Shown piece after piece: positions 19,840 to 64,000 of a stretch of 64,000 bases of DNA (position 1 is its first letter; each line of letters starts with the position of its first letter). Origin of the DNA: SAR86 cluster bacterium (GTDB taxonomy: Bacteria; Pseudomonadota; Gammaproteobacteria; Magnimaribacterales; D2472); the NCBI GenBank assembly GCA_003331545.1, contig QOPC01000002.1, forward strand, positions 14,518 through 78,517. The letters are read 5' to 3'. The translations under genes and the position numbers were made by a program. The notes beneath the pieces are model-generated. The model did no database searches and was not told the DNA's origin. It worked only from the letters and a program-made list of their open reading frames with translations.

Positions 19840-19848
19840 GGAGAAAGA

Positions 19849-22331: not shown

Positions 22332-22336
22332 ATTTA

Positions 22337-22813: not shown

Positions 22814-22839
22814 AAAGAAATTATATCAAATGAAATAAA

Positions 22840-26046: not shown

Positions 26047-27154
26047 AATCCTCGATCATTGTATTAAATTTAATAAAAAGCTCTTCTAGCTCGTGAGGTC
26101 CTGGACTGGCTTCTGGATGACCCTGAAAACTAAATGCAGGTTTATCTTTAAAGGCTATGCCTTGAAGGCTCTGATCAAAAAGTGAGACATGTGTTGGAAT
26201 AATATTATTGGGAAGGCTAGCTAATTCAACTGCAAAACCATGATTTTGACTTGTGATATATACAGTTTTAGAGGCTAAATCTTGCACAGGATGATTAGCA
26301 CCATGATGACCAAATTTCATCTTAAAAGTTTTGCATCCACCAGAAAGAGCTAGTAATTGATGGCCTAAACAAATTCCAAAAACTGGCATTTCAATTTCTA
26401 GAAGCTGCTGAATTAATTTTATCGCATAGTCACAAGGCTCAGGATCACCAGGACCATTAGATAAAAATACACCGTCAGGACTTAATTTTATTAACTCCTC
26501 AAAACTTATTTGAGCATTGACAACTTCTACTTTTCCAACATGCTTTCTTAGCAGTCTTAAAATATTTTTTTTGACTCCGTAATCAATTGCAACAATAAGT
26601 TTTTCATCTTTTACATCTTGATAATTTGGCCATGTGCCTTCTTCCCATGAAAAAGAATTTTTTGTTGAAACCTCTTTTGCAAGATCGAGGCCTTCTAAAC
26701 CACTGAATTGATTTAGAGCATCATTTGCTTCGGATAGCGATTCTTTTCCTCCAGGAGCAATGCATGCCTTAAGTGATCCATGCTCTCTTAGTTTTGCAGT
26801 AAGTGCTCTGGTATCAATATTTGAAATTCCTATTGTATTTTTTGATAGCAGAAAACTCTCCAGTGATTGATTTGCTCGCCAGTTACTATAATTTTTGGGA
26901 AGATCTTTAATAACAATTGCAGAAGCAAAAATATTATCAGACTCATTATCCTCATTATTTATGCCAGTATTACCGATATGGGGATGGGTAAAAGCAATAA
27001 TTTGTTTAGCATAGGATGGATCAGTAATAATTTCTTGATAACCTGACATTGAGGTATTAAAAACTATCTCGCCAACAGATTGTTGTTTTGATCCAAAGCC
27101 GATGCCCTCCATGACAGATCCGTCTTCAAGAACTAGAATCGCTGGAAACAGCAT
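26030..27154 (-). CDS. carA: Carbamoyl-phosphate synthase small (glutaminase) subunit
   Basis: 374 aa. Class I amidotransferase nucleophile GICLGHQLL and the HxxE region ([12 protein letters not shown]). 17-nt overlap with carB. Confidence 0.97.
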
Positions 27155-48603: not shown

Positions 48604-48619
48604 ATTTTAGGAAACTGAG

Positions 48620-49423
48620 GTGAATCTTAGAATAGTTGTATTTTTTGCAATTGGACTATTAATTTTTTTCCTTGATATTGCATTCAATTCCGAGCAAAAC
48701 TCAAAAGACATTTATCTTTCAGACCAAGAGTTATCTAGCCTTCTTACAGCATGGCAATCACAAGTTGGTAGGCCTCCAAGCGATGAAGAAATAGCAAATA
48801 TCATTAACAACTTTGTTCAAGAAGAGATTCTATATAGAGAAGCATTACTCTTAGATTTAGATCAAGAAGATCGAATAATTAAAAGAAGATTGGCGCAAAA
48901 AATTACTTTCTTAAAACAAGAAACAATTCCAGATGATCCATCGCAAGAAGAATTAGAAAAATTTTTTGAGCAAAATAAAAAAAACTACTATGTTCCAGCA
49001 ACATACTCTTTCTCTCATCACTATTTTTCTAAAGAATCTAATGCCAAAGAAAGGGCTGTGAAGGCTTTTAATGATTACCAAGCCAATCAAGCTGAATTAA
49101 CAGGCGATCCCTTTTTTCTAGGAAAAAATTTTTATCAAAGTAGCTCAAATGACATAAAGAAAAATTTCGGTGAGTTATTCTTTGTAGCTATTAAAAACCT
49201 TACTTTAAATGAGTGGTCTGGACCTCATGAATCTGCTTTTGGACAGCACATCATTAAATTGAAAGAAGTTAAAACTGGATTTTACCCTTCTCTAGAACAA
49301 GTGCTGTTAAAAGTTCAACAAGATTATCTTTCGCAGTCTCAAGATAAAGCAGTTGCTGAATATATCAATGAAATCAGATCTCAATACAGAGTAATAATTA
49401 ATCCAAATTATAAGTTCAAATGA
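48620..49423 (+). CDS. Membrane-anchored PpiC/Rotamase-type peptidyl-prolyl isomerase-like protein (GTG start)
   Basis: 267 aa. N-terminal TM helix. GDPFFLG and the parvulin-like WSGPHESAFGQHIIKLKEV block. Confidence 0.62.
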   Translation: MNLRIVVFFAIGLLIFFLDIAFNSEQNSKDIYLSDQELSSLLTAWQSQVGRPPSDEEIANIINNFVQEEILYREALLLDLDQEDRIIKRRLAQKITFLKQETIPDDPSQEELEKFFEQNKKNYYVPATYSFSHHYFSKESNAKERAVKAFNDYQANQAELTGDPFFLGKNFYQSSSNDIKKNFGELFFVAIKNLTLNEWSGPHESAFGQHIIKLKEVKTGFYPSLEQVLLKVQQDYLSQSQDKAVAEYINEIRSQYRVIINPNYKFK

Positions 49424-50373
49424 CTTATAAGCTTGCTAAAACATTAGTAATACTATTTTGTTCAACTGTACTTTTCTCTCATGAATTTAATCCAGCTCAC
49501 TTAGTCATAAATGAGCTAAATGAAAATGAATACCAAGTTAGTTGGATGTACCCTATTAAAAATATTGGTGCTAGAGCAGAAGTTTTTTTTCCTGAGAGTT
49601 GCGATAGAAAGAGCCAATTACCAAGTCAGAAGGGAAAATATCTAGTTGAAAAAATATTGTTAAATTGTGAAAGCTCCCTAAAAGGTCAAATGATTTCAGT
49701 CAATAATCTGAGTGTGCTCACAGATGCATTGATAACGATAACTCACTCTAATGGCGAGGTGTTTGAAGGGTTGATGAACCTCAAGAGATCATCGATAGAG
49801 ATTCCATTAAAAGAGCAAGTCTACCCCATTGGATACTTCACGTTAGGTATTGATCATTTATTAAGTGGCAATGACCACATTCTCTTCATCCTAGGATTAC
49901 TTTTTTTGATTTCTGGATTTTTTAATGCAGTTAAAACAATTACAGCTTTCACTCTTGCTCACAGTATTACCTTGGGCTTATCAGTGTTTGAGTTAGTTTC
50001 ACTGCCTCAAGCTACCGTCGAAGCTATTATCGCACTTACTATCATTTTTCTTGCATTAGAGGTAAGTGAAAATAAAAAATATAAGGCTACGCCCTGGCTC
50101 ATTGCATTTGGCTTTGGATTGCTGCATGGACTAGGCTTTGCTAATGCCCTAACGGGAATTGGTATTGGGAATGAGCAGCTATTACTTTCTTTGCTGTTCT
50201 TTAATTTGGGTATTGAAGCTGGTCAGCTTATGTTAGTTCCAATATTTGGATCAGTAATCTGGCTGGCTCATAAATTTAACTTCTATAAGCAATCTGCTAC
50301 CCTCACCTCATTGATTTTAGGTGGCATGGGTTTTTTCTGGCTTATCGATAGAGTTACTGGAATCTTGGGGTAA
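49420..50373 (+). CDS. HupE/UreJ-family membrane protein (HupE_UreJ_2-like) with N-terminal periplasmic extension
   Basis: 317 aa. Signal peptide, then HEFNPAH. The C-terminal half has 5-6 TM helices with the GIDHLLSGNDHILFILGLL signature. ATGA overlap with the upstream gene. Confidence 0.68.
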   Translation: MTYKLAKTLVILFCSTVLFSHEFNPAHLVINELNENEYQVSWMYPIKNIGARAEVFFPESCDRKSQLPSQKGKYLVEKILLNCESSLKGQMISVNNLSVLTDALITITHSNGEVFEGLMNLKRSSIEIPLKEQVYPIGYFTLGIDHLLSGNDHILFILGLLFLISGFFNAVKTITAFTLAHSITLGLSVFELVSLPQATVEAIIALTIIFLALEVSENKKYKATPWLIAFGFGLLHGLGFANALTGIGIGNEQLLLSLLFFNLGIEAGQLMLVPIFGSVIWLAHKFNFYKQSATLTSLILGGMGFFWLIDRVTGILG

Positions 50374-50389: not shown

Positions 50390-51358
50390 TTAGAAATTAC
50401 CTAATCTCTTTCCAATAATTGCATCCGCTTCGTTCATGATCCCGTCGATTAACTCTTGTACTGTTGGAATATCGTTGACTAATCCAGCAACCATTCCACA
50501 AGACCAAGCCCCAACTTCCATTGTGCCCTCATGCATGATTTTTGGATAAACACCGGCAACCTCATCAGCAATATCTTGAAAAGTTAGCTGATCTCCTAAT
50601 GCAGCTTCTTTTTCCATAAGGCGTTCTACGGCTTCATTATTTAATACTCTTTCAGTATTTCTCAGAGAACGCATAATTAATCTGGTATCTAATTCAGATG
50701 CATTCACGATTGAATCCTTAACATTTTGATGAACAGGAGCTTCTTGAGTAGCTATAAATCTAGTGCCCATATTCATGCCCTCTGCTCCAAGAGCCATGGC
50801 TGCAACTAAACTTCTCGCATCAGCCATTCCACCAGAGGCAACAAATGGGATTTCAAGTTCATCAGCAGCTCTTGGTAGAAGAATAAAATTAGGAATGTCA
50901 TCTTCTCCAGGATGCCCGCCACACTCAAAACCATCTACTGAAACTGCATCACAACCAATTGATTGAGCTTTTAAAGAATGTCTTACTGAGGTGCATTTAT
51001 GAATCACCTTGATACCAGCTTCTTTAAGAGCTGGTAAATACTCAGCAGGGTTTCTACCAGCTGTTTCAACAATTGGAACATCTCCACCAATAATTACATC
51101 TACCAATCCTGGATAATCTGGAGGGGTTAAGGAAGGTAAAAAAGTGAGATTCACGGCAAAGGGTTTATCGGTCATCTCCTTGCAACGAGCTATCTCATTG
51201 GCAAGCTTTTCAGGGGTTCCTTGCGTTAAACCAGTAATTGTTCCAAGCCCGCCTGCATTTGATACTGCTGCAGCCAGCTCAGCAAAGCCAACATGATGCA
51301 TCCCGCCCTGAATAATGGGGTGCTTAATACCAAATAATTCTGTAATTTTAGTTTTCAT
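50390..51358 (-). CDS. NAD(P)H-dependent flavin oxidoreductase, nitronate monooxygenase/FabK-like (NMO family)
   Basis: 322 aa. Motifs KHPIIQGGMHHVGFAELAAAVSNAGGLG and GAEGMNMGTRF. Confidence 0.85.
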   Translation of the reverse strand: MKTKITELFGIKHPIIQGGMHHVGFAELAAAVSNAGGLGTITGLTQGTPEKLANEIARCKEMTDKPFAVNLTFLPSLTPPDYPGLVDVIIGGDVPIVETAGRNPAEYLPALKEAGIKVIHKCTSVRHSLKAQSIGCDAVSVDGFECGGHPGEDDIPNFILLPRAADELEIPFVASGGMADARSLVAAMALGAEGMNMGTRFIATQEAPVHQNVKDSIVNASELDTRLIMRSLRNTERVLNNEAVERLMEKEAALGDQLTFQDIADEVAGVYPKIMHEGTMEVGAWSCGMVAGLVNDIPTVQELIDGIMNEADAIIGKRLGNF

Positions 51359-51370
51359 AGTCTCTCCTCT

Positions 51371-52159
51371 TTATTTCATGTCTACAGGGGTTAAAAAATC
51401 TTCATATTGTTTTTGCAGCCTTTGCATTCCTGAAATCCATCGATCTCTGTCGTTACCTTTTCTTGCAACATATTCAGCCACTTCTGTATGCGGAAGTACT
51501 AAAAATTTTTCTTCTGCAATACATCTTAAAACTTCTTGCGCAACCACATCTGGTTCCATCATCCCATCAACTCCCGCAACACCTGGACCCTGAGCGGTCA
51601 TTGCAGTTCTCACTGCTTGAGGACATAAACATGAAACACCTATACCCTTTTCACCATAGGTAATTTTAATCCATTCAGCAAAACTTACTGCAGCTGCTTT
51701 AGTGACTGAATAGCCTGCTGCGCCTAACTGAGTTAAAAGGCCAGCTGCAGAAGATGTATTTACCAAATAGCCTTCTCCCCTTTCGATCATTTGAGGGAGG
51801 ACATGCTTGGCTGCAAAGATATGAGATTGGACATTCACATCCCAAATATTTTGCCAATCAGATGCATTTACTTCAAAAAATCCTGGCACACCTCCAATAC
51901 CAGCATTTGAGCAATAAATGTCTATTCCTCCAGCATGCTCATCTGACTTTTCAATAATGTTAATAGTATCTTCCTCACTACCGACATTAGCTTTAATTGC
52001 AATCCCATTAACTGAATCAGCTGTTTCTTGCGCTCCATCTAAATTAATATCCACGGCTACTATGGATTGAGCTTTAGCCTCATGAAAAGCTTCACAAAGA
52101 GCTTTTCCAATTCCACTAGCTGCACCAGTAACAACAATCCTTTTATTTTTTACATCCAT
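51371..52159 (-). CDS. Short-chain dehydrogenase/reductase
   Basis: 262 aa. TGAASGIGKA, NAG, and YSVTK (YxxxK). TAATG overlap with the upstream gene. Confidence 0.88.
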   Translation of the reverse strand: MDVKNKRIVVTGAASGIGKALCEAFHEAKAQSIVAVDINLDGAQETADSVNGIAIKANVGSEEDTINIIEKSDEHAGGIDIYCSNAGIGGVPGFFEVNASDWQNIWDVNVQSHIFAAKHVLPQMIERGEGYLVNTSSAAGLLTQLGAAGYSVTKAAAVSFAEWIKITYGEKGIGVSCLCPQAVRTAMTAQGPGVAGVDGMMEPDVVAQEVLRCIAEEKFLVLPHTEVAEYVARKGNDRDRWISGMQRLQKQYEDFLTPVDMK

Positions 52160-53211
52160 TAATTTATCTCAGTGATTATTATTTCATCTGAGTCTAATGG
52201 CAAAACAGCCATAGTTCCATCATTTGCTGAAGTCCAATCTGTTCTAATTTCATTTACGCCTCTATAAAACATTCTCTCCATGACGCCGATTCTCGGCGCA
52301 GGAGTTAAATGATAGAAAATTAAATGGTCAACATTTGCTAAATTAGCTGCCTTGGCAGCATCAATTGGAGTTGTATGATAACTCTCTATATCATTCAATA
52401 TTTTTAAAAGACCTTTATTAGAAGACAAAGCTTCTTTCATTATTTCCAATTGATGATTCGCCTGTGCCTCATGAAATAGTACATCTGCATCTTGAGCATT
52501 TTTTATTAAGTTTTCACTATAAGATGTGTCTCCGCTAATAACTATCGACCTGCCTCCATACTCAAAGCGATAGCCTAGGGCAGGCTCAATTGGCTCATGT
52601 GTTACCTGAAAGGCTGTTACTATTAAACCGTTTTCATTAATGATTACTGAACTATTTAAATCAATAGTATGTGGGGTAAAACCAGCAATATTTATCGGAG
52701 CAATTTCATCTCCATGATGCTCATTTCTAAACTGATAATCTAACTTATAGGCATCTTCAAACCCATTAATTACTGACTCAACACCATTTGGGCCATAAAC
52801 ATCCATGGGTTTTGTTCGAGTGGAGTTAATCCATGTCATTAAATGCAAATCTGCAAGATCTGATATGTGATCAGAGTGAAGATGTGTTAACAAAGTAGCT
52901 CGAATTTTATTAGCATCAACTCTCCAATTATTCAGGTTTGCTGCACTGCCATCACCAATATCAACTACGTAATAATTACCGCCCGCATTAACTAGAATAC
53001 ATGTTTGTGCTCTTCCAGGAGATGGAATTGGAGATCGAGAGCCACAAACTAAAGCTGATAAAGAATCGTCATTAAGGTCTGCTGTGCTCGCCAATAAATT
53101 TTGAGCAACTACAGACATCAATCGGTCTTGAAAACTTGGTAATCTGATGAGAATAGAGATTAAGACAATAATGATTACAACGATTAAAAAAATGTACTTT
53201 ATTGTTTTCAT
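52159..53211 (-). CDS. Membrane-anchored MBL-fold metallohydrolase (RNase Z/beta-lactamase-like)
   Basis: HxHxDH motif (THLHSDHISD) with later His/Asp ligands. N-terminal TM helix. I start it at the ATG at 53211 (MKTIKYIF...), 4 nt after the upstream stop. The track ORF extends to 53247. Confidence 0.82.
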   Translation of the reverse strand: MKTIKYIFLIVVIIIVLISILIRLPSFQDRLMSVVAQNLLASTADLNDDSLSALVCGSRSPIPSPGRAQTCILVNAGGNYYVVDIGDGSAANLNNWRVDANKIRATLLTHLHSDHISDLADLHLMTWINSTRTKPMDVYGPNGVESVINGFEDAYKLDYQFRNEHHGDEIAPINIAGFTPHTIDLNSSVIINENGLIVTAFQVTHEPIEPALGYRFEYGGRSIVISGDTSYSENLIKNAQDADVLFHEAQANHQLEIMKEALSSNKGLLKILNDIESYHTTPIDAAKAANLANVDHLIFYHLTPAPRIGVMERMFYRGVNEIRTDWTSANDGTMAVLPLDSDEIIITEIN

Positions 53212-53215
53212 AATT

Positions 53216-53608
53216 TTATGGCTCTTTTGAAATTCTCGATCCAGCAAAGATTAAAAACAATCCCACACTTATTTCAACAACAATCGCTGGCAAAACAAAT
53301 GGAGCTCCGTATATGGCAGTTGAAAGAGTTCTGAATAATGCTGCTACCAATAACAGCATTGATGGAGCATAAAACCAATGACGAGTTTGTGAAAGGGCTC
53401 CAATTAGTGTCATAGCGCCTACAGTTATGAAGAAACTTCCCATATCCCCAATTTGAGTGCTCAGCCCAACTCCCTCTAATAAGGGCATGCCCAATTGCGC
53501 TGCAATATTTGCAGGAGCAATAATCCACTGAAGTCCATTTATTAAAAATAAGGTCCCTAAAAGACCTGCGACCACTCTTAAGGTATTTTTCATTTTTTCT
53601 CCTTTCAA
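53216..53608 (-). CDS. Four-TM membrane protein, unknown function (possibly DUF4345-like)
   Basis: 130 aa with four hydrophobic helices. The family assignment is tentative and from memory of the size and topology only. Abuts the upstream gene with 0 nt spacing. Confidence 0.5.
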   Translation of the reverse strand: MKGEKMKNTLRVVAGLLGTLFLINGLQWIIAPANIAAQLGMPLLEGVGLSTQIGDMGSFFITVGAMTLIGALSQTRHWFYAPSMLLLVAALFRTLSTAIYGAPFVLPAIVVEISVGLFLIFAGSRISKEP

Positions 53609-54712
53609 CTATTTTATAAGATTAACAATAATGCCTTCATTTGGATTAATTTTTCCATCAACCATTTCTTCATAAGTGCTGATAAAATTTTCTAAACCAT
53701 GAATCTCTTTCACTTGCATCCAATTTTTACTTTGAAGTGCTCTAGAAGTCATGAACGAATTTGTTTTTTGCGCATAACCATCATGCCCCCAGTCCCCAAT
53801 TCGCTTTTGGATGTGAGCTGGCGCAAAAAAGAATTCAGTTCTATCTCTGAGCATTGCTTGGCCTAAAGCATCTTCTGCAGTGGTCTCGTTATCCCAATGA
53901 GTCATGCCCACAGTGAGGCACTTAAGCATGTTATCACCCAGCTCCCCATGGAGAGTTCCAAGAATTTCTCGATTACCAGCCATATCAACCATCACAGAAC
54001 CCATTAAATAATCTACATTACTAAGCTCATCGTAAGAGATAACTTCATCATAACAGCCAAGGTTTTCCACAAACTTTAAGTTTGATGAAGATGTAAGTCC
54101 AACTATTTTTGGTGTATTTTCAGTATCAGCTAAACCTTGAGCCAGACCAATGGCAGTTTTACTCGAAGCGCTAACTATAATTACTTGGGATGCTCCAAGG
54201 TATGAATCTTCGGCCAAAGAGTCGCATAAACAAAATGCTGTAATATGGAGTGGGAATAAAAGAGCTCTGACTGCATCCATGGATGGATCGTAATTTTGAT
54301 CTCCATTTAGCCTCACATAATTATTGTAAACCGGCGGGAGTTCTTTACGGTGTTCTTTGCCATCACTGAAACTTTGATCTGAGACTTTAATCGGACTTAA
54401 AGTTAATGAGTCAGAAGCTGGAAAATAGCCAAAGAGTCTTTCTCCGACATTCAAACCCTCAATATTTGAGTGGGTAATTTCAGCAAACCCCCACATAGGT
54501 ATGCAGCCCCATTCATTGTCTGCATTATTTTTAGCTGGAAAAAATTTCCAATAACCAATCGTATCTCCCGCGACGCCATAAGTGACGTTATTAGCTGTAA
54601 ATGCAAAGCTTTCAATCTTGACTGCAATCTCATCATCATGAATAGAAACTGAATCAGTATCTACAATTCTTGAATGAGTTAAATCAGATTTTAAAGTTTG
54701 AAATTGACTCAT
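53609..54712 (-). CDS. DUF2855-like protein (MDR/alcohol-dehydrogenase-like fold, unknown function)
   Basis: 367 aa. The N-terminal IAVKIESFAFTANNVTYGVAGDTIGYWKFFP block matches the pattern I recall for DUF2855. There is a Rossmann-like VIIVSASSKTAIGLA. Needs HMM confirmation. Confidence 0.55.
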   Translation of the reverse strand: MSQFQTLKSDLTHSRIVDTDSVSIHDDEIAVKIESFAFTANNVTYGVAGDTIGYWKFFPAKNNADNEWGCIPMWGFAEITHSNIEGLNVGERLFGYFPASDSLTLSPIKVSDQSFSDGKEHRKELPPVYNNYVRLNGDQNYDPSMDAVRALLFPLHITAFCLCDSLAEDSYLGASQVIIVSASSKTAIGLAQGLADTENTPKIVGLTSSSNLKFVENLGCYDEVISYDELSNVDYLMGSVMVDMAGNREILGTLHGELGDNMLKCLTVGMTHWDNETTAEDALGQAMLRDRTEFFFAPAHIQKRIGDWGHDGYAQKTNSFMTSRALQSKNWMQVKEIHGLENFISTYEEMVDGKINPNEGIIVNLIK

Positions 54713-54726
54713 AATATTTTCCTAAA

Positions 54727-55194
54727 TTATTTTTTTTGTATCAGCGAAAGAATAAAAAGAATTATCAAAACAAGAGTTACATAAGGAGCTCCAACTGCTC
54801 CAGGAGTAGCATCAACAGTATAAATTCCTTGAATAACTATGTCTTCTCTAATTAGAGGGTATCCAAATGTTCTAAAGCTCCACTCAAATAACCAAAATAA
54901 ATACATTAATGGAATGAGTGCTCTGTATCGAAAAATTACAACCCAGCAAACCAAACAAAATATTAACTGCACAAAACCCCAAAGAGAAAAAAATCTATAG
55001 ATCAGCAGCATAGGATCGGGATCACCTTCGATAGTTAAAAAATTTCCAATTTCATGAAATCCATATTTCTCAAAAAGCATATGAACGATTGACCGCCATG
55101 TCATTAGAAGTGTGAATAAAATAAATCCCCAAAAAGCAATCTTTTGGCCATTAAAATTATTATCAGCCACGGAAGGGAAAATTTTATTGAGCAC
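54727..55194 (-). CDS. Four-TM membrane protein, unknown function (GTG start)
   Basis: 155 aa, Trp/Phe-rich helices. GTG overlaps the upstream TAG by 1 nt, with SD GAAGGAG 9 nt upstream. Confidence 0.55.
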   Translation of the reverse strand: MLNKIFPSVADNNFNGQKIAFWGFILFTLLMTWRSIVHMLFEKYGFHEIGNFLTIEGDPDPMLLIYRFFSLWGFVQLIFCLVCWVVIFRYRALIPLMYLFWLFEWSFRTFGYPLIREDIVIQGIYTVDATPGAVGAPYVTLVLIILFILSLIQKK

Positions 55195-55607
55195 TAAATA
55201 GCTCCTTCTTTTGTTTCTATATTTAATTGCCCAAGAAGTCCTGCAGATCTATGTTTCTCACTCTCTTGATAATCTGAGCTCAGCATCATTTCAAGCATGG
55301 CTTTTCTACTTGGATATCTGGCGATTGCAACGGTATCCCAAAGATCTTCTACTTCACCAAGCATAAGTCGATTTACTTGACCACCAAAAATTAGCTCTCC
55401 ACCAACTTTTTTAAGATGCTCTTGGACTTCCATTGCATAAATTGCATATGCCTCTTCACCAGACAGCTCAGTATCTCTGCCATCTTCGTATTCAGCTTTT
55501 TCTTTAAATTTAAGAAGATTAACCATTGAAATTGGTGAATCAATATCACCCTCAAGAAACTCATTCATTTGAGTTTGATTAGGTGTGACCATGTTTTTAA
55601 CTTCCAT
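55194..55607 (-). CDS. DUF1330-like protein (dimeric alpha/beta-barrel type, unknown function)
   Basis: 137 aa. MVNLLKFK...VAIARYPSRKAMLEMMLSSDYQESEKHRSAGL resembles the DUF1330 pattern (..YPS.eA...fy.SpEYq). Confidence 0.5.
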   Translation of the reverse strand: MEVKNMVTPNQTQMNEFLEGDIDSPISMVNLLKFKEKAEYEDGRDTELSGEEAYAIYAMEVQEHLKKVGGELIFGGQVNRLMLGEVEDLWDTVAIARYPSRKAMLEMMLSSDYQESEKHRSAGLLGQLNIETKEGAI

Positions 55608-55609
55608 CT

Positions 55610-56224
55610 TTACTCACCCAAAGTAATTGCTTTCTGAAAAGCAGGTCTCGCATTTATTCTTGCAACATAATCTTTAATGTTTTGCATCTCGTCATTTATA
55701 CACCCCAATCTATTAGCCATGAAACATGAGTGTCCAAGCATAAGATCTGCACCTGAGAAATCTCCAATTAGGTAATCTTTATCAGCAAGATTCTCATTCA
55801 CTGGAGCTAAAGATTTTGTGAGTAAGTTTTTTGCTTGATTTAAAACAGTCTCATCTCTTCGATCTGGTGGCAATAAAATAGTCTGCACAACTATTTGATT
55901 CATTGGAGGCATGACCATTCCTTCACAGTAGTGATACCACTGAAGATACAAAGGAAATTCAGGATTATCTGAACCTGGCTTTAGCCCTCCATTTTTATGT
56001 CTCTCTAGAACATAATCGATGATGGCACCAGATTCAAAAATTGAAATATCTCCATCTTCTAAGACAGGCACTCTTCCAAGTGCATGCCTTGATCTGTGCT
56101 CAGGAGATTTAAGGCCCTCCTTAGTAAAGGGCATAATATTTACTTCATATTCCAACCCCAACTCCTCCAAAAGCCAAACTATTCGACCCGCCCTTGTACC
56201 AGCAACAAAATGAACTTTTAACAT
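55610..56224 (-). CDS. Glutathione S-transferase
   Basis: 204 aa. Thioredoxin-like N-domain with LGRVPVLEDGDISIFESGAIIDYV (cis-Pro and ES glutathione-binding elements), and a helical C-domain. Confidence 0.85.
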   Translation of the reverse strand: MLKVHFVAGTRAGRIVWLLEELGLEYEVNIMPFTKEGLKSPEHRSRHALGRVPVLEDGDISIFESGAIIDYVLERHKNGGLKPGSDNPEFPLYLQWYHYCEGMVMPPMNQIVVQTILLPPDRRDETVLNQAKNLLTKSLAPVNENLADKDYLIGDFSGADLMLGHSCFMANRLGCINDEMQNIKDYVARINARPAFQKAITLGE

Positions 56225-56237
56225 TATTTTTACCTCT

Positions 56238-56921
56238 CTATTTTTTTACCATTTTTTGAGCATTCTTTGTGAACTCTTTCATTTTTTTATCATCATCTAA
56301 AAGGCTTTCAATCTTTACAGGAACTGCTATACCTGCAACCATTCCTGGCTGTTCGTACATTGCTTTTATCCATCGATCAAGGTGATCCAATCCCTCAACT
56401 GAAATTCCTGACCATTTGTGAGTCCTGACCCAACACCAATTGGCAATATCAGCTATTGAATAATCGGTTGCAAGCCATTCTTGATTAGCTAAATGGGTAT
56501 CAAGTACTTCAAACAGTCTTCTGCCTTCATTTTGGTACCGATCAATGGCCGGTTGAATTTTTTCTGGAAAGTACCGAAAAAATACATTTGCTTGACCCAT
56601 CATGGGTCCTACTCCACCCATCTGAAACATCAACCATTCTAAAACTTTTGCTTTTTCATTAAGATCCCTTGGCATAAGCTTGCCAGTCTTTTCTGCGAGA
56701 TAAATCATGATGGCCCCTGATTCAAAAATAGCAAGATTGCTCGAATCCCTGTCCACAATTGCAGGAATTCTCCCATTAGGACTAACTGCAAGAAAATCAG
56801 GTTCCTTTTGCTCATTCTTTGATAAATTAATAATGTGGGTTTCATAATCTAAGTCCATAGCTTCTAGAACGCACGAAACTTTATGGCCGTTGGGGGTCGG
56901 GGCTGTATAAAAATCAATCAT
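56238..56921 (-). CDS. Nu-class, YfcG-like glutathione S-transferase/disulfide reductase
   Basis: [27 protein letters not shown]...[11 protein letters not shown]...[18 protein letters not shown] parallels E. coli YfcG ([15 protein letters not shown]...). ATG at 56921 with a perfect SD AAGGAG 5 nt upstream. The track GTG start at 56927 is less likely. Confidence 0.85.
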
Positions 56922-56923
56922 TG

Positions 56924-58009
56924 TCACTCCTTTATAAAAGATATAAGAATATCAGAAAGTTGTTCTGCTCGTGTCCATTGATAAAAATGGCCTCCTCCAA
57001 TATGAGGAGCACTTTTAGCATTAGGAGCCATTTCAAGAACATCTTTCTCAATACCATTAGTGACAGGGTCATCGCCTGCAAACACTGCTAAGAATGGCTT
57101 GGTTGAGGTCTTAAAAAACTCTCTTGCTTCTTTTTGTGCATTCAACGATGCATCTGGAAGAATTGGCACATGGCTGGGCATAGCTCGAGGACCCATTTTG
57201 AAGGATGGATCTGGAAAAGGTGCTTCATAAGCTTTAACTAGATCAGAAGTAAATGGTGAAATTTTTGCTAAGCCTAAGTTTTCAAAAATATATTGTCCCA
57301 TCAAAGAAACTCTAGATCTTTTTTCCATCATGATCGAGCTGATGAATCCAATTGGTAAATTTTTAGTATCCCAGCAAAATTTTTGCCAATACATAAATTT
57401 TAGTGCTGGATGAAAAGAGGAAGATGAGTCTTTTGAAAGATTGTTTCCATCCATTTCCATCACCTCTTTTTGCATACTCATTGGAGTAAGCTTCAAATCA
57501 CTTGCTCTGAAATCTTTTACTTGCTCAATAACTTCTTGAGGAACATCTGGATTATATGGCAACCCAGTATTGCCCATTGATATCTTATTAAATCTAAAAG
57601 GATCATGAGAGATCATCCTGAGGCCTATAAGTCCTCCCCAATCCTGACCAAAAAAAGTTAAATTTGAAAAATTATTTTCTTTTAGCCATGCACTCATCCA
57701 ATCAACTTGATTTTGATAGGTGTAGTCATCTCGAGCCGCCGGTTTATCCGATTTGCCATACCCTGGTAAGTCTGGTGCTATTACCCTTATACCCGCTTTT
57801 ACAAGATATGGAATCATTCTTGCATAAAGATAACTCCAGACCGGTTGGCCATGCATGGCTAATAGGATTGGTCCGTCCTTTGGCCCTTCGTCAATATGAT
57901 GAATTCTAAGATCTGTTCCGTCGTAAGTTTTAATGATTGTGTAACGGGGCTCAAAGGGATACTCCTCTAAACTGCTAAACCTTTCATCGGGTGTTCTTAA
58001 AATTTTCAT
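56924..58009 (-). CDS. Haloalkane dehalogenase-like alpha/beta hydrolase (HLD-I/DhlA-like) with enlarged cap domain
   Basis: From the ATG at 58009 (ATGA overlap with the upstream stop): [33 protein letters not shown], nucleophile context [14 protein letters not shown], acid candidate AGDDP, and His in GGGHFYQW. All are collinear with DhlA as I recall it, but the protein is about 50 aa longer in the cap. Confidence 0.8.
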
Positions 58010-59046
58010 TTCTCGATGATCATTTCTCCACAACCCGTTTTAATTAAGAATTCTTTAATTTGCTTTTGATCGCTTTCATTCAATTTTTGAAACTCATTAT
58101 TGATCCATTTCAAACACTTTGCCTGATATGGGAAACTTTTTTGTTCCCATTTAGCCCCATCAATTTCAGCTGTCCAAGTTTTCTCTTCTTGATTAATAGC
58201 ACGTGAATTTGCTAATAAGGCAGGTAAATATACTTTACCAACTTCTTGGAAAAGACTTAATAAATTTTGTTCCGCATCTTTAAAATTTATCCAGTCACTT
58301 TCGTTTGGCTTTAAACCGCTTAAATCCTCCATTAGATCCTGCCAAGCAACAACTCGAGGTGATATCTCATGCGCTAAAGCTCTTGAGGTTGGATCAAAGC
58401 CAATTAATGCCGATAGTTGACCAAATAAAGCGAAGTCTGCAGATGATGGGCGGTTGCCAAATAAAAATGGATGCTTAGACAAGCAATGGTCAAGTTGCCC
58501 AAGAAATCTTTTGTAGCTTGCTTCGATAATAGGAGCTGTTAACTCGTTAGAACCAACAACCCCTAAACGACTTATCTGTAAATCTGAAATATGCTTTTTG
58601 AAGGCTGCATGACTATCATCATCAAGAGAAATGCCATGTAACAAGGGCAATATGGTTCCAGCTTTCTCTATGTCATCTTTAAAGTACCATCTGTAATGAA
58701 ACATATATTTCGTGACCCACTCATCACCAAAGTCCTCAAGTACATAATTTAAAAACGCCAACTTTGGATCTGATGGAATAACGCTCCTAGGAGAAAATTC
58801 AATTTCTAAATGACGAATAATTGGAGTTGAATCAGTAACTGCTTTGTGTTTACCATCAACTTCAAAAATCATCACAGGCAGCAATACTGGTTTAGGCTCT
58901 TCCACCCCAAACCTTCCAATAAGATCTCTAGGATCGCCCCATTCAATCACATAGGGGATTCTTCGATATCGCATTAATGAGATCATTTTTCTTGTATAAG
59001 GAGAGGCAGGAACACCACCAATTGGAATGGGATTAAGGCTTTTCAT
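58006..59046 (-). CDS. Atypical long GST-fold protein
   Basis: About 346 aa from the ATG at 59046 (MKSLNPIPIGG...), 2 nt after the upstream stop. Thioredoxin-like N-domain (VPASPYTRKMISLMRYRRIPY...AVTDSTPIIRHLE) and a helical C-domain (SSADFALFGQLSAL). Confidence 0.55.
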   Translation of the reverse strand: MKSLNPIPIGGVPASPYTRKMISLMRYRRIPYVIEWGDPRDLIGRFGVEEPKPVLLPVMIFEVDGKHKAVTDSTPIIRHLEIEFSPRSVIPSDPKLAFLNYVLEDFGDEWVTKYMFHYRWYFKDDIEKAGTILPLLHGISLDDDSHAAFKKHISDLQISRLGVVGSNELTAPIIEASYKRFLGQLDHCLSKHPFLFGNRPSSADFALFGQLSALIGFDPTSRALAHEISPRVVAWQDLMEDLSGLKPNESDWINFKDAEQNLLSLFQEVGKVYLPALLANSRAINQEEKTWTAEIDGAKWEQKSFPYQAKCLKWINNEFQKLNESDQKQIKEFLIKTGCGEMIIEK

Positions 59047-59048
59047 TC

Positions 59049-59972
59049 CTAGAATTTCTGGGCAGACAATTTTTGACATGTCTCATTAAACTCAAAGATT
59101 GTTTCTTCAATAATTTGTGAAACTGACTTTACTTGATCTATTAAGCCTGCGGATTGTCCAGTGAGGGCTGGAGCTGCATTCATATCTCCACCAAAATAAA
59201 GATCTTGAATTCGACCCATTTCAGACATTTCCATGATGCCAGACTCATAAATTTTTCTGGTAAATTCTGTTTTTAGAGCTCTAATACAAGGTTTTGATTT
59301 TTTATTTAAAATCCAAGTACCTTGCTCATCTGATTCAATAATAGAATTTTTAAAATTATTATGAACTGGGCTTTCCTTTGAAGAAACAAATCTTGTTCCC
59401 ATCTGAATTCCCTCAGCTCCCGCTGCAAATGCTGCAGCCATTCCAACGCCATCAACAATTCCGCCTGCAGCAATTATTGGAAGATCGGTATGCTTTCTTA
59501 TTGCTTGAATTAATACAATCAATCCAACTTCCTCTGGACTTTTAAATCCTCCACCCTCTGTACCTTCAATAACTAAACCGTCAACACCAGCATCAGCAGC
59601 TTTAATTGCTCCAGCAACGCTCGGTACGGCATGAAAGACCTTAATACCTGCATTTTTAAGAATGTGAATGTATTTCCCAGGATCACCAGCAGAGGTTGTA
59701 ACAAATTTTATGCCTTGCTCTAACACTAACTCGATCATGCTTTCATCCCTAAGAAACATTAGAGGTAAATTTACGCCAAAAGGTTTGTCCGTCAGTTTAG
59801 CCATTGCAAGAATCTCTGCTTTGCAATTTTCAGTCTCACCAGATGAAGTCTCAATTACGCCGAATCCTCCTGCATTTGAAACAGCGGAAGCAAGTTGACT
59901 TCTTGCAATCCACCCCATAGGCGCTTGAATAATCGGATACTTAACTTCCAATATTTTAGCCACTCTATTCAT
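59049..59972 (-). CDS. NAD(P)H-dependent flavin oxidoreductase, NMO/FabK-like (second copy)
   Basis: KYPIIQAPMGWIARSQLASAVSNAGGFG and GAEGIQMGTRF. Start taken at the ATG at 59972 (MNRVAKIL...), 1 nt after the upstream stop. The track ORF extends to 60023. Confidence 0.85.
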   Translation of the reverse strand: MNRVAKILEVKYPIIQAPMGWIARSQLASAVSNAGGFGVIETSSGETENCKAEILAMAKLTDKPFGVNLPLMFLRDESMIELVLEQGIKFVTTSAGDPGKYIHILKNAGIKVFHAVPSVAGAIKAADAGVDGLVIEGTEGGGFKSPEEVGLIVLIQAIRKHTDLPIIAAGGIVDGVGMAAAFAAGAEGIQMGTRFVSSKESPVHNNFKNSIIESDEQGTWILNKKSKPCIRALKTEFTRKIYESGIMEMSEMGRIQDLYFGGDMNAAPALTGQSAGLIDQVKSVSQIIEETIFEFNETCQKLSAQKF

Positions 59973-59973
59973 A

Positions 59974-61143
59974 TTAATCTTCGATTTTAAATGTGAGTCC
60001 GGCACTTGCTTGTAGTCTTGCAATTAACTTCTCGCCCATTGCCGGAGCAGGTGTATAAATGCCTCCAGGAAGTTCAGGACACTCTTTCACTAAGCAGATT
60101 GCACTCTCAGCAATCATTTTAGAGGTCGAGCCATATCCCGGATCCATATCGCCAGAAACAGCAGCATGAATGCTTGAACCATCAGCTAAGTCTGCACAGA
60201 ATAAAACGTCATAATTTCCATTCTCTCTAGATTCTTTTGAAGGGCCTTCACCAGGTGCCGGTGCATCAGCCAAGGGATTAATGCTGCCAACATATTCTGC
60301 TGCTGCTTTCCCTTCTTCGCCTGGACCTTGAATCCACATTTCGTTATAACAAAAATCTTCTCCATACATGTGATTCATTAATGCATTAGACCTATGAACA
60401 TTTTTTGTATTGATTGGTGCCATAAAAAAAGGGGCAACCCAAGTCTCTAGTTTTTCATCAAACACAGCTTTGGAATCTGGGGCTTGTTCAGGTCCTGTGA
60501 AACCATTAGATAAAGCAAACGGATTTGCCAATACTGCAAATAATTCAGGCTTTTGTTTCAATGAAGCCATGGTTGCACCCAGAGAGGCTGCTGTTCCACC
60601 TGAAAATTCTCCATTCATTGCTCTGACTCTGCCTCTAATATTGGAAGCAGGAATGCCATGCTGAGCTATTACTTCTTTTTGTAAAAAGTAAACACCCAAA
60701 TCAAAAGGTATGCTATCAAAACCACAAGAAAAAACGATTCTTGCCCCACTATCCTTTGCCTCCTCAGCATACTCGTTAATCATTTCGTGCATCCAGCCAG
60801 GCTCTCCGCATAGATCAACATAATCTGTTCCATTGGCAACACAGTGCTTAACAATATTAGGTCCATACAATTGGTATGGGCCGACAGTTGTTAGCACGCA
60901 TTGTGCTTGTTGCACCATCTGCTTGATGCTCTCTTCATCATCGCTATCCACGGTAAGCAAAGGAATATCTGGAGAAACACCTAAGGCATCTCTGACCGCA
61001 ATTAATTTTTCATGACTTCTTCCTGCCATAGCCCAAGATATACTTTGATCACTGCCATATTGATTTAACATATATTCCACAACTAACTTTCCAGTAAAGC
61101 CTGTTGCGCCATAAACCACCACATCAAAATTCTTATCACTCAT
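59974..61143 (-). CDS. Saccharopine dehydrogenase-like oxidoreductase (SCCPDH / trans-acting enoyl reductase family)
   Basis: 389 aa. N-terminal Rossmann motif FDVVVYGATGFTGKLVVEYM and a family-typical layout (TTVGPYQLYG...CGFDSIPFDLG). Confidence 0.8.
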   Translation of the reverse strand: MSDKNFDVVVYGATGFTGKLVVEYMLNQYGSDQSISWAMAGRSHEKLIAVRDALGVSPDIPLLTVDSDDEESIKQMVQQAQCVLTTVGPYQLYGPNIVKHCVANGTDYVDLCGEPGWMHEMINEYAEEAKDSGARIVFSCGFDSIPFDLGVYFLQKEVIAQHGIPASNIRGRVRAMNGEFSGGTAASLGATMASLKQKPELFAVLANPFALSNGFTGPEQAPDSKAVFDEKLETWVAPFFMAPINTKNVHRSNALMNHMYGEDFCYNEMWIQGPGEEGKAAAEYVGSINPLADAPAPGEGPSKESRENGNYDVLFCADLADGSSIHAAVSGDMDPGYGSTSKMIAESAICLVKECPELPGGIYTPAPAMGEKLIARLQASAGLTFKIED

Positions 61144-61169
61144 AAGATTCTCCTTTCAAAATTATTTTA

Positions 61170-62978
61170 TTAATATCCGGCTTGTTCAGAATTTATAGTT
61201 TGCAGCCAGTCACTATCTAGAACTTCGTAATTACTAGAATTAGGTTTCATGCAAAAGATCATGTCGCTGACTTTATCAATATCGAATGCTTCACTCCTAA
61301 GATCATTCTTTTTTAACTTAAAAGTTCCGGTGGTATCCATTTCTTGAATAATTCTAATAAATAAGGGGCGAGCATACTTTGGCAGAGATGTTTCTACGTA
61401 ATTAGAAAAAGCTTGCCAATCAAATTGTTCTGCATCATCTAGACTGAATGCAGCCATTCCAGCTCTTCCTTCGCAGCCGGGAATCTTCACCCCATAAACA
61501 TTTGACATATTGACATCCTTAAAACCATTTAATATTTCACCAACCTCGTTTGTTGAAACATTTTCAGATTTCCACCTAAATGTATCACCCACTCTGTCCA
61601 CAAATTGATAATGAATTTTTCCTAATGCATAACCTACATCAACAGTTTTAATTAAATCACCGGTATTAAACCAAGCATCGCCCTCTTCAAAAACATCTCT
61701 TACAATTTTCTTTTCGGTTGCCTGCGCATCTGTATAGCCATTGAATACTGCATTGGGGCCAATTCTTACAATTAACAAACCAGGATCATGATTAATAATC
61801 TTTTTACAAAAACCATCATCTCCTTTCAAAATTATATCTTCAGCTACGTCATATTCTATTAAAGCAACATCTGCATTAGTCATGCCAATGGTTTTATTTT
61901 TATTTAAAAGATTCATAAAAAGTGCATTGCCCTCACTTGCACCATAAATCTCAACAATCCTATTTACCCCAAATCTGTCTTTAAATGTATCCCAGACATC
62001 TGGTCTGAGACCATTGCCAACCATTACTTTCAAAGGATTATCTAACTCAGCTGGGGATGGTTCATGATTAGCGAGATATCTGCAGAGCTCTCCTATGTAT
62101 ACAAGCGCAGTTGTATTGTATTCCTGCACTTCCTCCCAAAATGACGAAGCTGAGAATTTCCTTTTAATGAATGTTGATGCGCCAGCCTGAATAACGGCAC
62201 ATAGTCCCAACATTAGACCTGTGGAATGATAAAGAGGAAGACTATTGTGCATGCAGTCAGTCTCATTGATTCGATATCCAGCCATTTTAATATTTATGGA
62301 GGCTGCCATAAGCTTTTGATTTGGACAGATCGCTGCCTTTGGAACTCCTGTGGTACCAGAAGTAAAAATATAGCAAGCCACATCTTTAGCTTTTACAGAG
62401 TTCGTTTCATCTAAATCTTGATCATCAGTAAAATCAATTTGCGCTTTCAGATCAATGGCCCAATCTGGTAATGAATAATTTGGAGTATCCTCAACCCAGA
62501 GAAAATCCTCCTGTTTTACAACATTTATCTGATCTAAAACATCCTCCAAGGGAGCTGAGCGCTCTGCACCAAAAATACATTTAATGGAATCAGAGGAATT
62601 TATACAATGAACTAAAGGATCACCAGTTAAGCTGGTATTAATTAAAACAGCTATTGCTCCAATCTTATTGAGAGCGAGCAAAGAAATAACAAAATCAGGA
62701 CGATTTTCCATAAATAAAATCACTCTATCGCCATGCTTTACACCTGATCCAGCAAGATATCTTGCAAGACTATTAGCTGATTTGTTTGTTTGATCATAGG
62801 TCCAAGTTCCTTCCTCAAAATACAAAAAAGGTCTGTCAGAAAACTTTGTTGTGGTTTGTTGAAAGGAATGAGCCAAGGAAGCATTATCTTCAGGATCAGG
62901 AAACTTATATCGAAGAACTGGAATTAAATACCTTAGCTCCCCAATAACTCTAAAAAACTCTTTGATTTGATTAAACAA
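61170..62978 (-). CDS. FATP/very-long-chain-type acyl-CoA synthetase (TTG start)
   Basis: 602 aa. AMP-binding motif YIFTSGTTGVPKAA, TGDL, and the FATP signature DRVGDTFRWKSENVSTNEV. SD GGGGGAAAG lies just upstream of the TTG. Confidence 0.88.
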   Translation of the reverse strand: MFNQIKEFFRVIGELRYLIPVLRYKFPDPEDNASLAHSFQQTTTKFSDRPFLYFEEGTWTYDQTNKSANSLARYLAGSGVKHGDRVILFMENRPDFVISLLALNKIGAIAVLINTSLTGDPLVHCINSSDSIKCIFGAERSAPLEDVLDQINVVKQEDFLWVEDTPNYSLPDWAIDLKAQIDFTDDQDLDETNSVKAKDVACYIFTSGTTGVPKAAICPNQKLMAASINIKMAGYRINETDCMHNSLPLYHSTGLMLGLCAVIQAGASTFIKRKFSASSFWEEVQEYNTTALVYIGELCRYLANHEPSPAELDNPLKVMVGNGLRPDVWDTFKDRFGVNRIVEIYGASEGNALFMNLLNKNKTIGMTNADVALIEYDVAEDIILKGDDGFCKKIINHDPGLLIVRIGPNAVFNGYTDAQATEKKIVRDVFEEGDAWFNTGDLIKTVDVGYALGKIHYQFVDRVGDTFRWKSENVSTNEVGEILNGFKDVNMSNVYGVKIPGCEGRAGMAAFSLDDAEQFDWQAFSNYVETSLPKYARPLFIRIIQEMDTTGTFKLKKNDLRSEAFDIDKVSDMIFCMKPNSSNYEVLDSDWLQTINSEQAGY

Positions 62979-63072: not shown

Positions 63073-64000
63073 TTAATTCACTTGAGCTATTGAACCAGTC
63101 TCTAATCCTAAAGCATTAGCTACTTTAGTCGAAATTAGAAGATTCTTTTTTTCTTTATCAAATGCATAATTTTCTTTCACAACTGCAAAAGCATTCATCA
63201 AAGGATTTGCAATAAAGCCAAAATGATCAAAAGTTATATTACGTCTGACTTCTACAGGAAATAATCTTGCAGATTTTACAAGTGGTATATCTTTGATTTT
63301 TGTCTCTAAGCAAGGGCCGCCATCTAAGACATCTATCAAGCCATTTGGACGAAAATTTTGTTTAGTTAGCAAAGAATATGCCGGCATGGCATTAGGATGA
63401 GGCTTACCAATAACTCTCTGCAACTTTTTAGGCATGTGCTCTATGATGAAAGGAAACTTAGGGATAGATTCCATTACAAAATGATTATCAATATAGCTAA
63501 TTTCATCTACTTTAAAAAAATCTAAATTAAAGAAAGTTTTACTAAATAAATTCCAAAAATAAGATTCATCTTTAAGATTTTTAAAACCTCTTATCTCAAC
63601 AAAAGCAGTGGGATCAAATCTACATAGGTGGGCTGACATAAAAATAAATCTAGAGAATGAAAGCAGTGAGCCACTGCCTTTCCCCCTATAAGCTGGTTTA
63701 ATAAATAAAGTCCCTAATTCGGAATAAGGTTTCTTACGCAAATGAAGTAAGAGAACTTCAAGATCTTTAGTAAATTTTAATGATTTTGATTGAAGCTTTG
63801 AAAGAGATTTTTTGAAAAAAATTGAGGGTTTTTTTTGAGACACAGAAGTATAGATTGCAGAAAGTCCAACTATGCGACCATTATCTTCTAGCACAAATAA
63901 ATAACTATCTTGATTAGGTTTTTTTGTTTTTTTATTACGGGATCTTTCTGACCATTTAATCCTTTCTTTTATTTCTTTTGTTGTTTTGGGCATAGTCGTC
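63073..64000 (-). CDS. astA: Arginine/ornithine N-succinyltransferase, C-terminal ~310 aa (gene runs off the right edge)
   Basis: SYLFVLEDNGRIVGLSAIY, SELGTLFIKPAYRGKGSGSLLSFSRFIFM and DVLDGGPCLE are collinear with E. coli AstA as recalled. The reading frame stays open upstream of the ATG at 63993 to the window edge, and the family N-terminus is missing. Confidence 0.8.
   Translation of the reverse strand, partial: TTMPKTTKEIKERIKWSERSRNKKTKKPNQDSYLFVLEDNGRIVGLSAIYTSVSQKKPSIFFKKSLSKLQSKSLKFTKDLEVLLLHLRKKPYSELGTLFIKPAYRGKGSGSLLSFSRFIFMSAHLCRFDPTAFVEIRGFKNLKDESYFWNLFSKTFFNLDFFKVDEISYIDNHFVMESIPKFPFIIEHMPKKLQRVIGKPHPNAMPAYSLLTKQNFRPNGLIDVLDGGPCLETKIKDIPLVKSARLFPVEVRRNITFDHFGFIANPLMNAFAVVKENYAFDKEKKNLLISTKVANALGLETGSIAQVN

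Follow-up and report, generated by a model that had tools for sequence, protein, structure and literature searches.

Described systems related to the SAR86 gene cluster

The lin genes of Sphingobium, which act on gamma-hexachlorocyclohexane, code for the haloalkane dehalogenase (HLD) LinB, the short-chain dehydrogenase/reductase (SDR) LinC and the glutathione transferase (GST) LinD; they are dispersed and recently assembled. The nemRA-gloA system of E. coli has a TetR-family electrophile-sensing repressor, an ene-reductase and a glutathione-dependent enzyme, and in the isoprene cluster the GSTs IsoI and IsoJ, the SDR IsoH and the coenzyme A (CoA)-transferase IsoG process an electrophilic hydrocarbon derivative. 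SAR86 bacteria represent a large share of the bacteria of the surface ocean, and their diet is inferred mainly from genomes. The cluster analysed here comprises 14 genes (g01 to g14) at positions 50390-62978 of a 64-kb stretch of SAR86 DNA (contig QOPC01000002.1), called the window below. Its logic appears to resemble that of the lin, dhl, nemRA-gloA and iso systems, and its enzyme set, its long-cap dehalogenase of HLD subfamily I (HLD-I) and the trio DUF2855, DUF1330 and TM155 are undescribed in the literature searched. Comparison of related genomes indicates that the region is a patchwork, not one linear pathway, in which a fatty-acid-activating pair was added to an old selected core around the DUF2855 gene. 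The reading that we favour, with moderate confidence, is a composite SAR86 island, ancestrally controlled by TetR, in which glutathione and NAD(P)H would serve to process electrophilic or halogenated organic compounds, the substrates and the order of steps being inferred. The genes are the following (aa, amino acids; FMN, flavin mononucleotide; MBL, metallo-beta-lactamase).

g01, 61170-62978, minus strand: long-chain (FATP/FadD6-type) acyl-CoA synthetase, 602 aa; PRK08279 690 bits against a cutoff of 625, Pfam AMP-binding
g02, 59974-61143, minus strand: Sacchrp_dh_NADP-domain (SCCPDH-like) protein, 389 aa; Pfam PF03435 over the N-terminal 137 aa
g03 (NMO1), 59049-59972, minus strand: FabK-like FMN enzyme, 307 aa; Pfam NMO 194 bits
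g04, 58006-59079, minus strand: long, divergent GST-fold protein, 346-357 aa; Pfam GST_N_3, GST_C_2/3/6
g05, 56924-58009, minus strand: homologue of HLD-I (DhlA-type) haloalkane dehalogenases with an enlarged cap, 361 aa; PRK00870 304 bits against a cutoff of 265
g06, 56238-56921, minus strand: Nu-class (YfcG/YghU-like) GST, 227 aa; Pfam GST_N, GST_C
g07, 55610-56224, minus strand: cytosolic GST, 204 aa; Pfam GST_N, GST_C
g08, 55194-55607, minus strand: DUF1330 protein, 137 aa; Pfam PF07045 29.6 bits against a cutoff of 23
g09 (TM155), 54727-55194, minus strand: orphan membrane protein with four helices, 155 aa; usually directly upstream of DUF2855
g10, 53609-54712, minus strand: DUF2855 protein, 367 aa, anchor of the conserved core; Pfam PF11017 334 bits
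g11 (TM125), 53216-53593, minus strand: small membrane protein, 125 aa; weak DUF4345, always paired with the MBL gene
g12, 52159-53211, minus strand: MBL-fold hydrolase with an N-terminal transmembrane anchor, 350 aa; Pfam Lactamase_B_2, Lactamase_B
g13, 51371-52159, minus strand: classical SDR, 262 aa; Pfam adh_short 140 bits
g14 (NMO2), 50390-51358, minus strand: homologue of the PA1024-type FMN-dependent NADH:quinone oxidoreductase, 322 aa; NMO family, PA1024 match

The family assignments given in an earlier note on this DNA are all upheld by hidden Markov model (HMM) searches of Pfam and NCBIfam, g09 and g11 being without a family at standard thresholds.

The SAR86 cluster and the lin genes both combine a hydrolytic HLD with an SDR and a GST, in the lin genes for an organohalide. 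LinB is, however, an HLD-II enzyme whereas g05 belongs to HLD-I (DhlA/DpcA-like), the cluster has no equivalent of LinA or LinE, the likeness to LinC and LinD is at the family level, and the lin genes are dispersed and recent while the SAR86 core appears old and is clustered. The HLD-I core and the pentad of Asp-His-Asp and two Trp residues are common to g05, to DhlA, by which Xanthobacter autotrophicus degrades 1,2-dichloroethane, and to DpcA, DccA and DmrA, but g05 carries ~55-65 extra cap residues and is surrounded by GSTs and reductases, without an alcohol or aldehyde dehydrogenase or a haloacid dehalogenase. Sister lineages of the window species have a divergent TetR gene and a palindrome at the head of genes for ene-/quinone-reductases and glutathione-dependent enzymes, an arrangement possibly analogous to nemRA-gloA. 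They differ from it in having NMO/FabK-like, PA1024-like and DUF2855 proteins instead of an old yellow enzyme and GSTs instead of a glyoxalase, and the window itself has no TetR gene. The isoprene cluster likewise joins GSTs, an SDR and a CoA-activating step, and g04 faintly matches the IsoI model (23.5 bits against a cutoff of 300); unlike that cluster, the SAR86 one has no monooxygenase and no IsoG-type enzyme. Among single enzymes, PA1024 of Pseudomonas aeruginosa is 58% identical to g14 over its full length but the genomic partners of g14 are the SDR and the GST/HLD core. PTGR1, plant alkenal double-bond reductases and CurA superpose on the predicted structure of DUF2855 with TM-scores of 0.6-0.7, but are only 10-17% identical to it in sequence and have a glycine-rich NADP motif where DUF2855 has SASSKTAIG.

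Conservation of the core among SAR86 lineages

A pattern scan based on a DUF2855 alignment, with one genome per species, yielded 283 genomes of which the best 80 are SAR86; a few contigs among these carry the labels Rhodobiaceae, Marinovum or Alphaproteobacteria. The relatives include SAR86E (AMWX01000008; 92-93% identity), assigned to subgroup IIIa (PMC3569297), and the cultured Magnimaribacter mokuoloeensis HIMB1674 (CP151794). The 14 window proteins were mapped by tblastn to 86 loci (designated by L and a number) and all open reading frames (ORFs) of the loci were also clustered into families. Dereplication at 88% DUF2855 identity, with full flanks required, left 28 lineages in which genes within 10 kb of DUF2855 were counted.

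The most constant partner of DUF2855 is DUF1330, found in 25 of the 28 lineages, followed by the HLD and the long GST g04 (21 each), g07 (20), the YfcG-like GST g06 (18) and TM155 (16). A formylglycine-type sulfatase is present in 15 lineages, NMO2 in 14, the MBL hydrolase and the SDR in 13 each, NMO1 and TM125 in 7 each, the acyl-CoA synthetase in 5 and the Sacchrp_dh protein in 4. At least three of five core partners (HLD, long GST, YfcG-like GST, g07 and DUF1330) are kept in 26 of the lineages, in 23 distinct architectures. The uninterrupted order of all 14 genes occurs in a single lineage, the species group of the window. The conservation that the earlier note proposed as a check thus holds for part of the gene set and fails for the gene order, so that the array is not a conserved 14-gene operon.

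The architectures differ widely. An inverted, divergent layout in L060, L065, L067 and L083 places the MBL, TM155, DUF1330, HLD and long GST genes, in this order, on one strand and DUF2855 next to them on the other. In HIMB1674 (L069) the genes for a thiolase, the MBL hydrolase, an acyl-CoA dehydrogenase, a medium-chain dehydrogenase/reductase (MDR) and TetR on one strand are followed on the other by DUF1330, long GST, HLD, NMO1, TM155, DUF2855, sulfatase, NMO2 and PepSY genes. The MDR beside TetR is a bona fide PTGR-type protein of which no homologue is found in the 64-kb window. The genes that flank the cluster also differ between architecture groups. Since the core is kept through rearrangement, strand inversion and change of flanks, the association seems to be selected and not just inherited synteny.

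By these comparisons the core would consist of DUF2855, DUF1330, the long-cap HLD-I, the long GST, the Nu-class GST, the Phi-like GST, TM155 and the FabK-like FMN reductase. It often appears extended by the sulfatase, by the MBL hydrolase with its DUF4345-like partner, or by the SDR with the PA1024-type quinone oxidoreductase.

Haloalkane dehalogenase and glutathione transferases

The best solved relatives of g05 are all HLD-I enzymes, namely DpcA (6f9o), DccA (5esr), DmrA (4mj3) and DhlA; residues 1-153 match the first three with 196-197 bits. Alignment to DpcA and DccA locates the catalytic pentad at D123 and W124 (GQDWGG), W208 (FMYWQKF), D314 (GDDPVT) and H341 (GGGHF), which are, in this order, the nucleophile with its adjacent Trp, the Trp of the cap, the acid (Asp) and the His. 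All 57 unique SAR86 orthologues have the same five residues.

Some 55-65 residues of g05, between positions 154 and 249, are unmatched in solved HLD-I structures. All 57 orthologues have 353-373 aa, exceeding the usual HLD-I size of about 295-310 aa, so the extra cap segment is, as judged from these alignments, a fixed feature of SAR86 HLD-I proteins. With their longer cap they may be a subclass of their own, in which the substrate tunnel differs.

Three GST-fold proteins accompany the dehalogenase. The place of g04 within the cluster shifts among lineages and its sole match among PDB sequences is weak (4kf9, E=1e-3). The Nu-class protein g06 scores 180 bits with PRK13972 and 162 bits with PRK11752, both under their cutoffs, and g07 is nearest to Phi-class and bacterial GSTs (best PDB match 87 bits). 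High GST copy numbers in SAR86 were described as unusual in a genome comparison (PMC11582366). One SAR86 branch (L033, L042, L049, L050, L059, L061, L063, L064, L082) has in addition a gene for a 215-aa DSBA/HCCA-isomerase-like (kappa-GST-like) protein directly upstream of the HLD gene.

DUF2855, DUF1330 and TM155

The DUF2855 profile of g10 gave no match at E<=1 to PDB sequences, so that assignment of its fold rests on an AlphaFold2 (AF2) model. This model (predicted local distance difference test, pLDDT, 82) has a two-domain fold, GroES-like and Rossmann. Foldseek retrieved with it PA1648, PTGR1/LTB4 12-hydroxydehydrogenase, plant alkenal double-bond reductases and CurA, with E values down to 1.8e-13. 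DUF2855 is accordingly modelled as a protein of the MDR superfamily with a fold like that of PTGR and alkenal double-bond reductases.

DUF1330 is duplicated in tandem in L012-L019, L022, L025, L027, L028, L030-L032, L034, L056 and L076, the second copy being ~62-70% identical to g08, and is single-copy in the window.

TM155 has no Pfam or NCBIfam family, also when 12 orthologues are scanned. The family counts 673 clusters, all marine and none named, and is essentially confined to DUF2855 neighbourhoods. Five residues of its predicted helices (R34, H38, E104, W105 and R108) are invariant, a pattern that points to catalysis or ligand binding in the membrane rather than to a simple anchor. The AF2 model has four helices at low confidence (pLDDT 66), and at that confidence it found no match in the Foldseek fold library. 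A MAPEG-like identity for TM155 found no support.

TetR and its putative operator

In ten loci from the closest sister species (L007-L009, L014-L019, L023) a TetR gene lies on the opposite strand between g02 and g03, convergent with the synthetase pair and divergent from NMO1, which is there the first gene of the TetR-divergent core. An acyl-CoA dehydrogenase gene stands alongside TetR in three of them. The 28-nt spacer between TetR and NMO1 and the TetR start codon fall within a perfect 16-1-16 palindrome of 33 bp, ATATCTATTGACATAA-T-TTATGTCAATAGATAT (L018, SAR86E, 4196-4228), that holds TTGACA in both orientations. The palindrome core occurs once in each of the 10 loci with a SAR86E-type TetR and nowhere else among 88 loci, and is a putative TetR operator.

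The core of HIMB1674-type loci is headed by a TetR 39% identical to the SAR86E type; as TetR heads the core in both types of loci, the association is old. The HIMB1674 spacer between TetR and DUF1330 has no inverted repeat, and a direct repeat of the half-site ATGTCA is seen there by eye.

Neither a TetR homologue, anywhere in the 64-kb window, nor a SAR86E-type operator, within 3 mismatches, was found in the window. The simplest reading of this comparison is that a clean deletion of TetR and operator joined two units in the window species. Because both are gone and g03 starts 1 nt past the g02 stop, transcriptional read-through of the 14 genes, where co-transcription is inferred, is likely in this species and may be constitutive or derepressed.

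Flavoenzymes and the SDR

The solved structures nearest to g03 are FabK enzymes (224 bits). Both NMO-family proteins stay under the cutoff of 453 bits of the FabK model TIGR03151, g03 with 267 bits and g14 with 260. Residues 2-319 of g14 match residues 5-321 of PA1024 (2gjl) with 359 bits. PA1024 is an FMN-dependent NADH:quinone oxidoreductase that was earlier misannotated as nitronate monooxygenase (PMC10033279), and it is the quinone oxidoreductase, not a nitronate monooxygenase, that g14 resembles by sequence. The identity of g14 to PA1024 therefore qualifies a remark of 2012 that SAR86 encodes 'nitropropane dioxygenases' (PMC3358033), a reading which would be corrected for at least this one protein. 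It also takes away the basis of the nitro-fatty-acid substrates proposed in the earlier note.

The SDR g13 is usually paired with g14. A convergent gene for a protein like NAD-dependent 2-hydroxyacid/formate dehydrogenases is located just after NMO2 in L033, L042, L044, L047, L049, L055 and L057.

A proposed composite island for electrophilic and halogenated compounds

Enzymes that attack electrophiles abound in the conserved part of the cluster: the HLD, as many as four transferases of glutathione/thioredoxin fold, and a number of NAD(P)H/FMN reductases of activated double bonds and quinones. Given this content, and a TetR repressor gene at the head of the core in most branches, we favour an inducible island by which reactive hydrophobic compounds would be detoxified and assimilated. 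The electrophile and halo-organic theme that had been suggested from the window alone fits with the PTGR-like fold modelled for DUF2855, the PA1024 type of g14, the invariant HLD pentad and the PTGR-type MDR gene next to TetR in HIMB1674.

The compounds to be processed would be alkyl halides, alpha,beta-unsaturated carbonyls and quinones, possibly freed from sulfate esters in the periplasm. They would be dehalogenated hydrolytically by the HLD or conjugated to glutathione by the GSTs. DUF2855, NMO1 and the quinone reductase might then reduce activated C=C or quinone groups with NAD(P)H/FMN, and the SDR would tailor the products. In the SAR86E-like branch the synthetase/Sacchrp_dh pair lies upstream. 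Following the presumed deletion of TetR and operator in the window species, one, possibly derepressed, 14-gene transcript could pass carboxylate products to CoA-dependent catabolism.

Several observations speak against such an island. DUF2855 stands alone in 2 of the 28 lineages, so the core is not obligatory. The HLD gene is cleanly missing in L020 and L025-L029, where the array is otherwise complete from the synthetase through NMO2 and the YfcG-like GST directly follows the long GST; the dehalogenase is thus dispensable for the remaining genes. At the place of the glycine-rich AxxGxxG NAD(P)-binding motif, read by position, DUF2855 has the invariant stretch S181-A-S-S-K-T-A-I-G189, which makes its cofactor use uncertain. 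Outside SAR86 the neighbours of DUF2855 differ, with TetR alone in Pseudosulfitobacter and DUF2306 in Streptomyces, and the plasmid contexts of DUF2855 and HLD genes (Pseudosulfitobacter, Streptomyces, Sphingobium) have no neighbourhood in common and gave no functional lead. Across SAR86 loci (L007-L086) g14 is 82-98% identical where DUF2855 is only 65-93% identical; this constraint, much stronger than on its neighbours, raises the suspicion that g14 may have an independent, housekeeping-type role. Finally, the gap-free layout mostly reflects a streamlined genome, its spacing being close to the genomic background, and with ~97% of the whole window coding, tight packing says little.

A more specific form of this reading, which we consider tentative and rather doubtful, is an order-wide SAR86 pathway for natural organohalogens or halogenated/sulfated electrophilic lipids. 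It would employ the long-cap HLD-I as a new dehalogenase class, the GSTs and two so far uncharacterised families, DUF2855 as a new MDR-type reductase and TM155, under the control of a ligand-sensing TetR lost in some species.

In the literature searched, no mention of DUF2855 was found, DUF1330 appears only in incidental listings, and nothing ties SAR86 to dehalogenases or to this cluster. The paper on SAR86 isolates notes the high GST copy numbers together with abundant beta-oxidation genes (PMC11582366). If the composite-island reading is true, a conserved dehalogenase-glutathione-reductase island would be a sink for reactive algal metabolites (organohalogens, unsaturated aldehydes, quinones, perhaps sulfate esters) that is unmentioned in current accounts of SAR86, and DUF2855, DUF1330 and the orphan membrane family TM155 would obtain their first functional contexts. 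The same core is carried under TetR by the cultured HIMB1674, which makes the idea directly testable.

The fatty-acid-activating pair

The gene of the synthetase, g01, starts at TTG preceded by GGGGGAAAG. Its neighbour g02 has no match in NCBIfam and none among PDB sequences. The earlier note saw in the 14 genes a dedicated route for modified lipids, a reading that we now regard as unlikely: g01 would form the CoA ester of a long-chain halo-, nitro- or oxo-fatty acid and the downstream enzymes would dehalogenate, conjugate and reduce it. The match of g01 to the long-chain acyl-CoA synthetase model is in its favour, as are the contiguity of the 14 genes, with a g02/g03 junction in which a promoter would not fit, and a second architecture, in L040, where the synthetase is joined directly to the core. 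Acyl-CoA dehydrogenase and thiolase genes adjoin the core in other lineages, and SAR86 invests heavily in beta-oxidation (PMC11582366).

Against a dedicated fatty-acid operon, the synthetase and the Sacchrp_dh protein are found beside the core in only 5 and 4 of the 28 lineages, the nearest sister species have the TetR gene and operator between pair and core, and both NMO-family proteins fall short of FabK, g14 being PA1024-like and not a nitronate monooxygenase. Characterised HLDs and cytosolic GSTs, moreover, use free small molecules and not CoA esters. The synthetase pair joined the core late and in some lineages only, and is peripheral to it. Within the composite island favoured here it might feed acid products into CoA metabolism.

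The view that the cluster does not look like ordinary beta-oxidation is confirmed, HMM family searches finding no acyl-CoA dehydrogenase, enoyl-CoA hydratase/3-hydroxyacyl-CoA dehydrogenase or thiolase among the 14 genes. A fad beta-oxidation operon is rejected for the absence of these accompanying families. No homologue of the acyl-CoA dehydrogenase of the sister lineages is found anywhere in the 64-kb window.

Sulfatases and the MBL-fold hydrolase

The sulfatase found immediately after DUF2855 in 15 lineages (loci including L011-L014, L016, L018, L019 and L027-L035) is a 550-aa formylglycine-type protein (PF00884) with a CAPSR (CxPxR) motif and an N-terminal anchor (L069, 11097-12746). For the anchored g12 the nearest structures are PNGM-1 (85 bits) and then the MBL-type arylsulfatase 8gyg (62 bits). 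The MBL gene is sometimes on the opposite strand in other lineages. Orthologues of its partner TM125 match PF14248 over their full length in 10 of 11 cases (best E=1e-5), under the gathering score.

These proteins would agree with catabolism of sulfated and halogenated natural products, such as algal chlorosulfolipids or sulfated bromophenols, by periplasmic sulfatases, then by the HLD, whose pentad is intact, and the GSTs, and then by the reductases and the SDR. Arylsulfatases acting on sulfolipids were also proposed for SAR86 (PMC11582366). This route is nonetheless improbable: the 64-kb window has no sulfatase homologue, g12 is nearer to PNGM-1/RNase Z-like enzymes than to the arylsulfatase, the HLD and the sulfatase are each missing from several lineages, and the idea of the substrate is built on gene content alone.

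Gene packing and neighbouring genes

The ORF listing of the window has positions 50390-62978 tiled by 14 minus-strand ORFs, whose start codons were refined by the Shine-Dalgarno-like sequence 5' of candidate starts. With these starts the widest junction is the 26-nt spacer between g01 and g02 (61144-61169), most spacers are of 0-16 nt, and there are three stop/start overlaps: ATGA at g04/g05 (58009-58006), TAGTG at g08/g09 (55196-55192) and TAATG at g12/g13 (52161-52157). An independent gene caller gave the same 14 genes on identical metagenome contigs, so that the back-to-back arrangement first described for the cluster is borne out, and a look-up of the exact proteins retrieved numerous marine metagenome contigs with these genes and flanks. 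Elsewhere in the window, adjacent genes on one strand are separated by a median of 7 nt, 25 of 34 such gaps being <=26 nt; the cluster is marginally tighter than this background (Fisher p=0.04, Mann-Whitney p=0.025). A consensus scan counted 36 promoter-like sites in the cluster and 46.5 in shuffled sequence, and 9 and 10.8 terminator-like sites, respectively, neither being depleted or enriched.

That the genes have no common function, being unrelated detoxification and housekeeping genes placed side by side in a tightly packed streamlined genome, would be in line with the packing, with a second same-strand run of 18 genes in the window (8545-27154), with the variable composition of the cluster, with the far stronger conservation of g14 and with the different neighbours of DUF2855 outside SAR86, but has little probability given that the same 5-8 families stay by DUF2855 across 23 architectures, inversions and changed flanks, that a TetR/operator heads the core in two SAR86 families and that TM155 lives essentially only beside DUF2855.

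The segment 41218-46411, on the strand of the cluster, codes for a 449-aa DSBA-domain protein, a DUF3604 protein, an SDR and an alpha/beta hydrolase. DSBA-domain, SDR and hydrolase genes directly follow NMO2 on the same strand in L028, L030 and L031; the island may therefore extend past positions 50390-62978. In the window a plus-strand block (46522-50373) convergent with the cluster codes for another DUF3604 protein, a Rotamase_2 protein and HupE/UreJ.

Upstream of g01, on the same strand and 94 nt away, lies a gene similar to AstA (arginine N-succinyltransferase) at 63073-63993, whose longest ORF on longer contigs (L001-L006) has 334 aa.

P0005, a DUF2855 protein of 501 aa encoded on a contig of 583 kb, was considered as a fusion protein; this was rejected, the protein having an internal duplication of ~165 residues that is probably an assembly artefact. 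Five loci filed in metagenome-assembled genomes named Rhodobiaceae, Marinovum or Alphaproteobacteria (L037, L052, L054, L056, L083) have a SAR86-type DUF2855, 65-81% identical to the window protein, and four of the five also have SAR86-type neighbour genes. These labels on SAR86-type contigs probably result from mis-binning.

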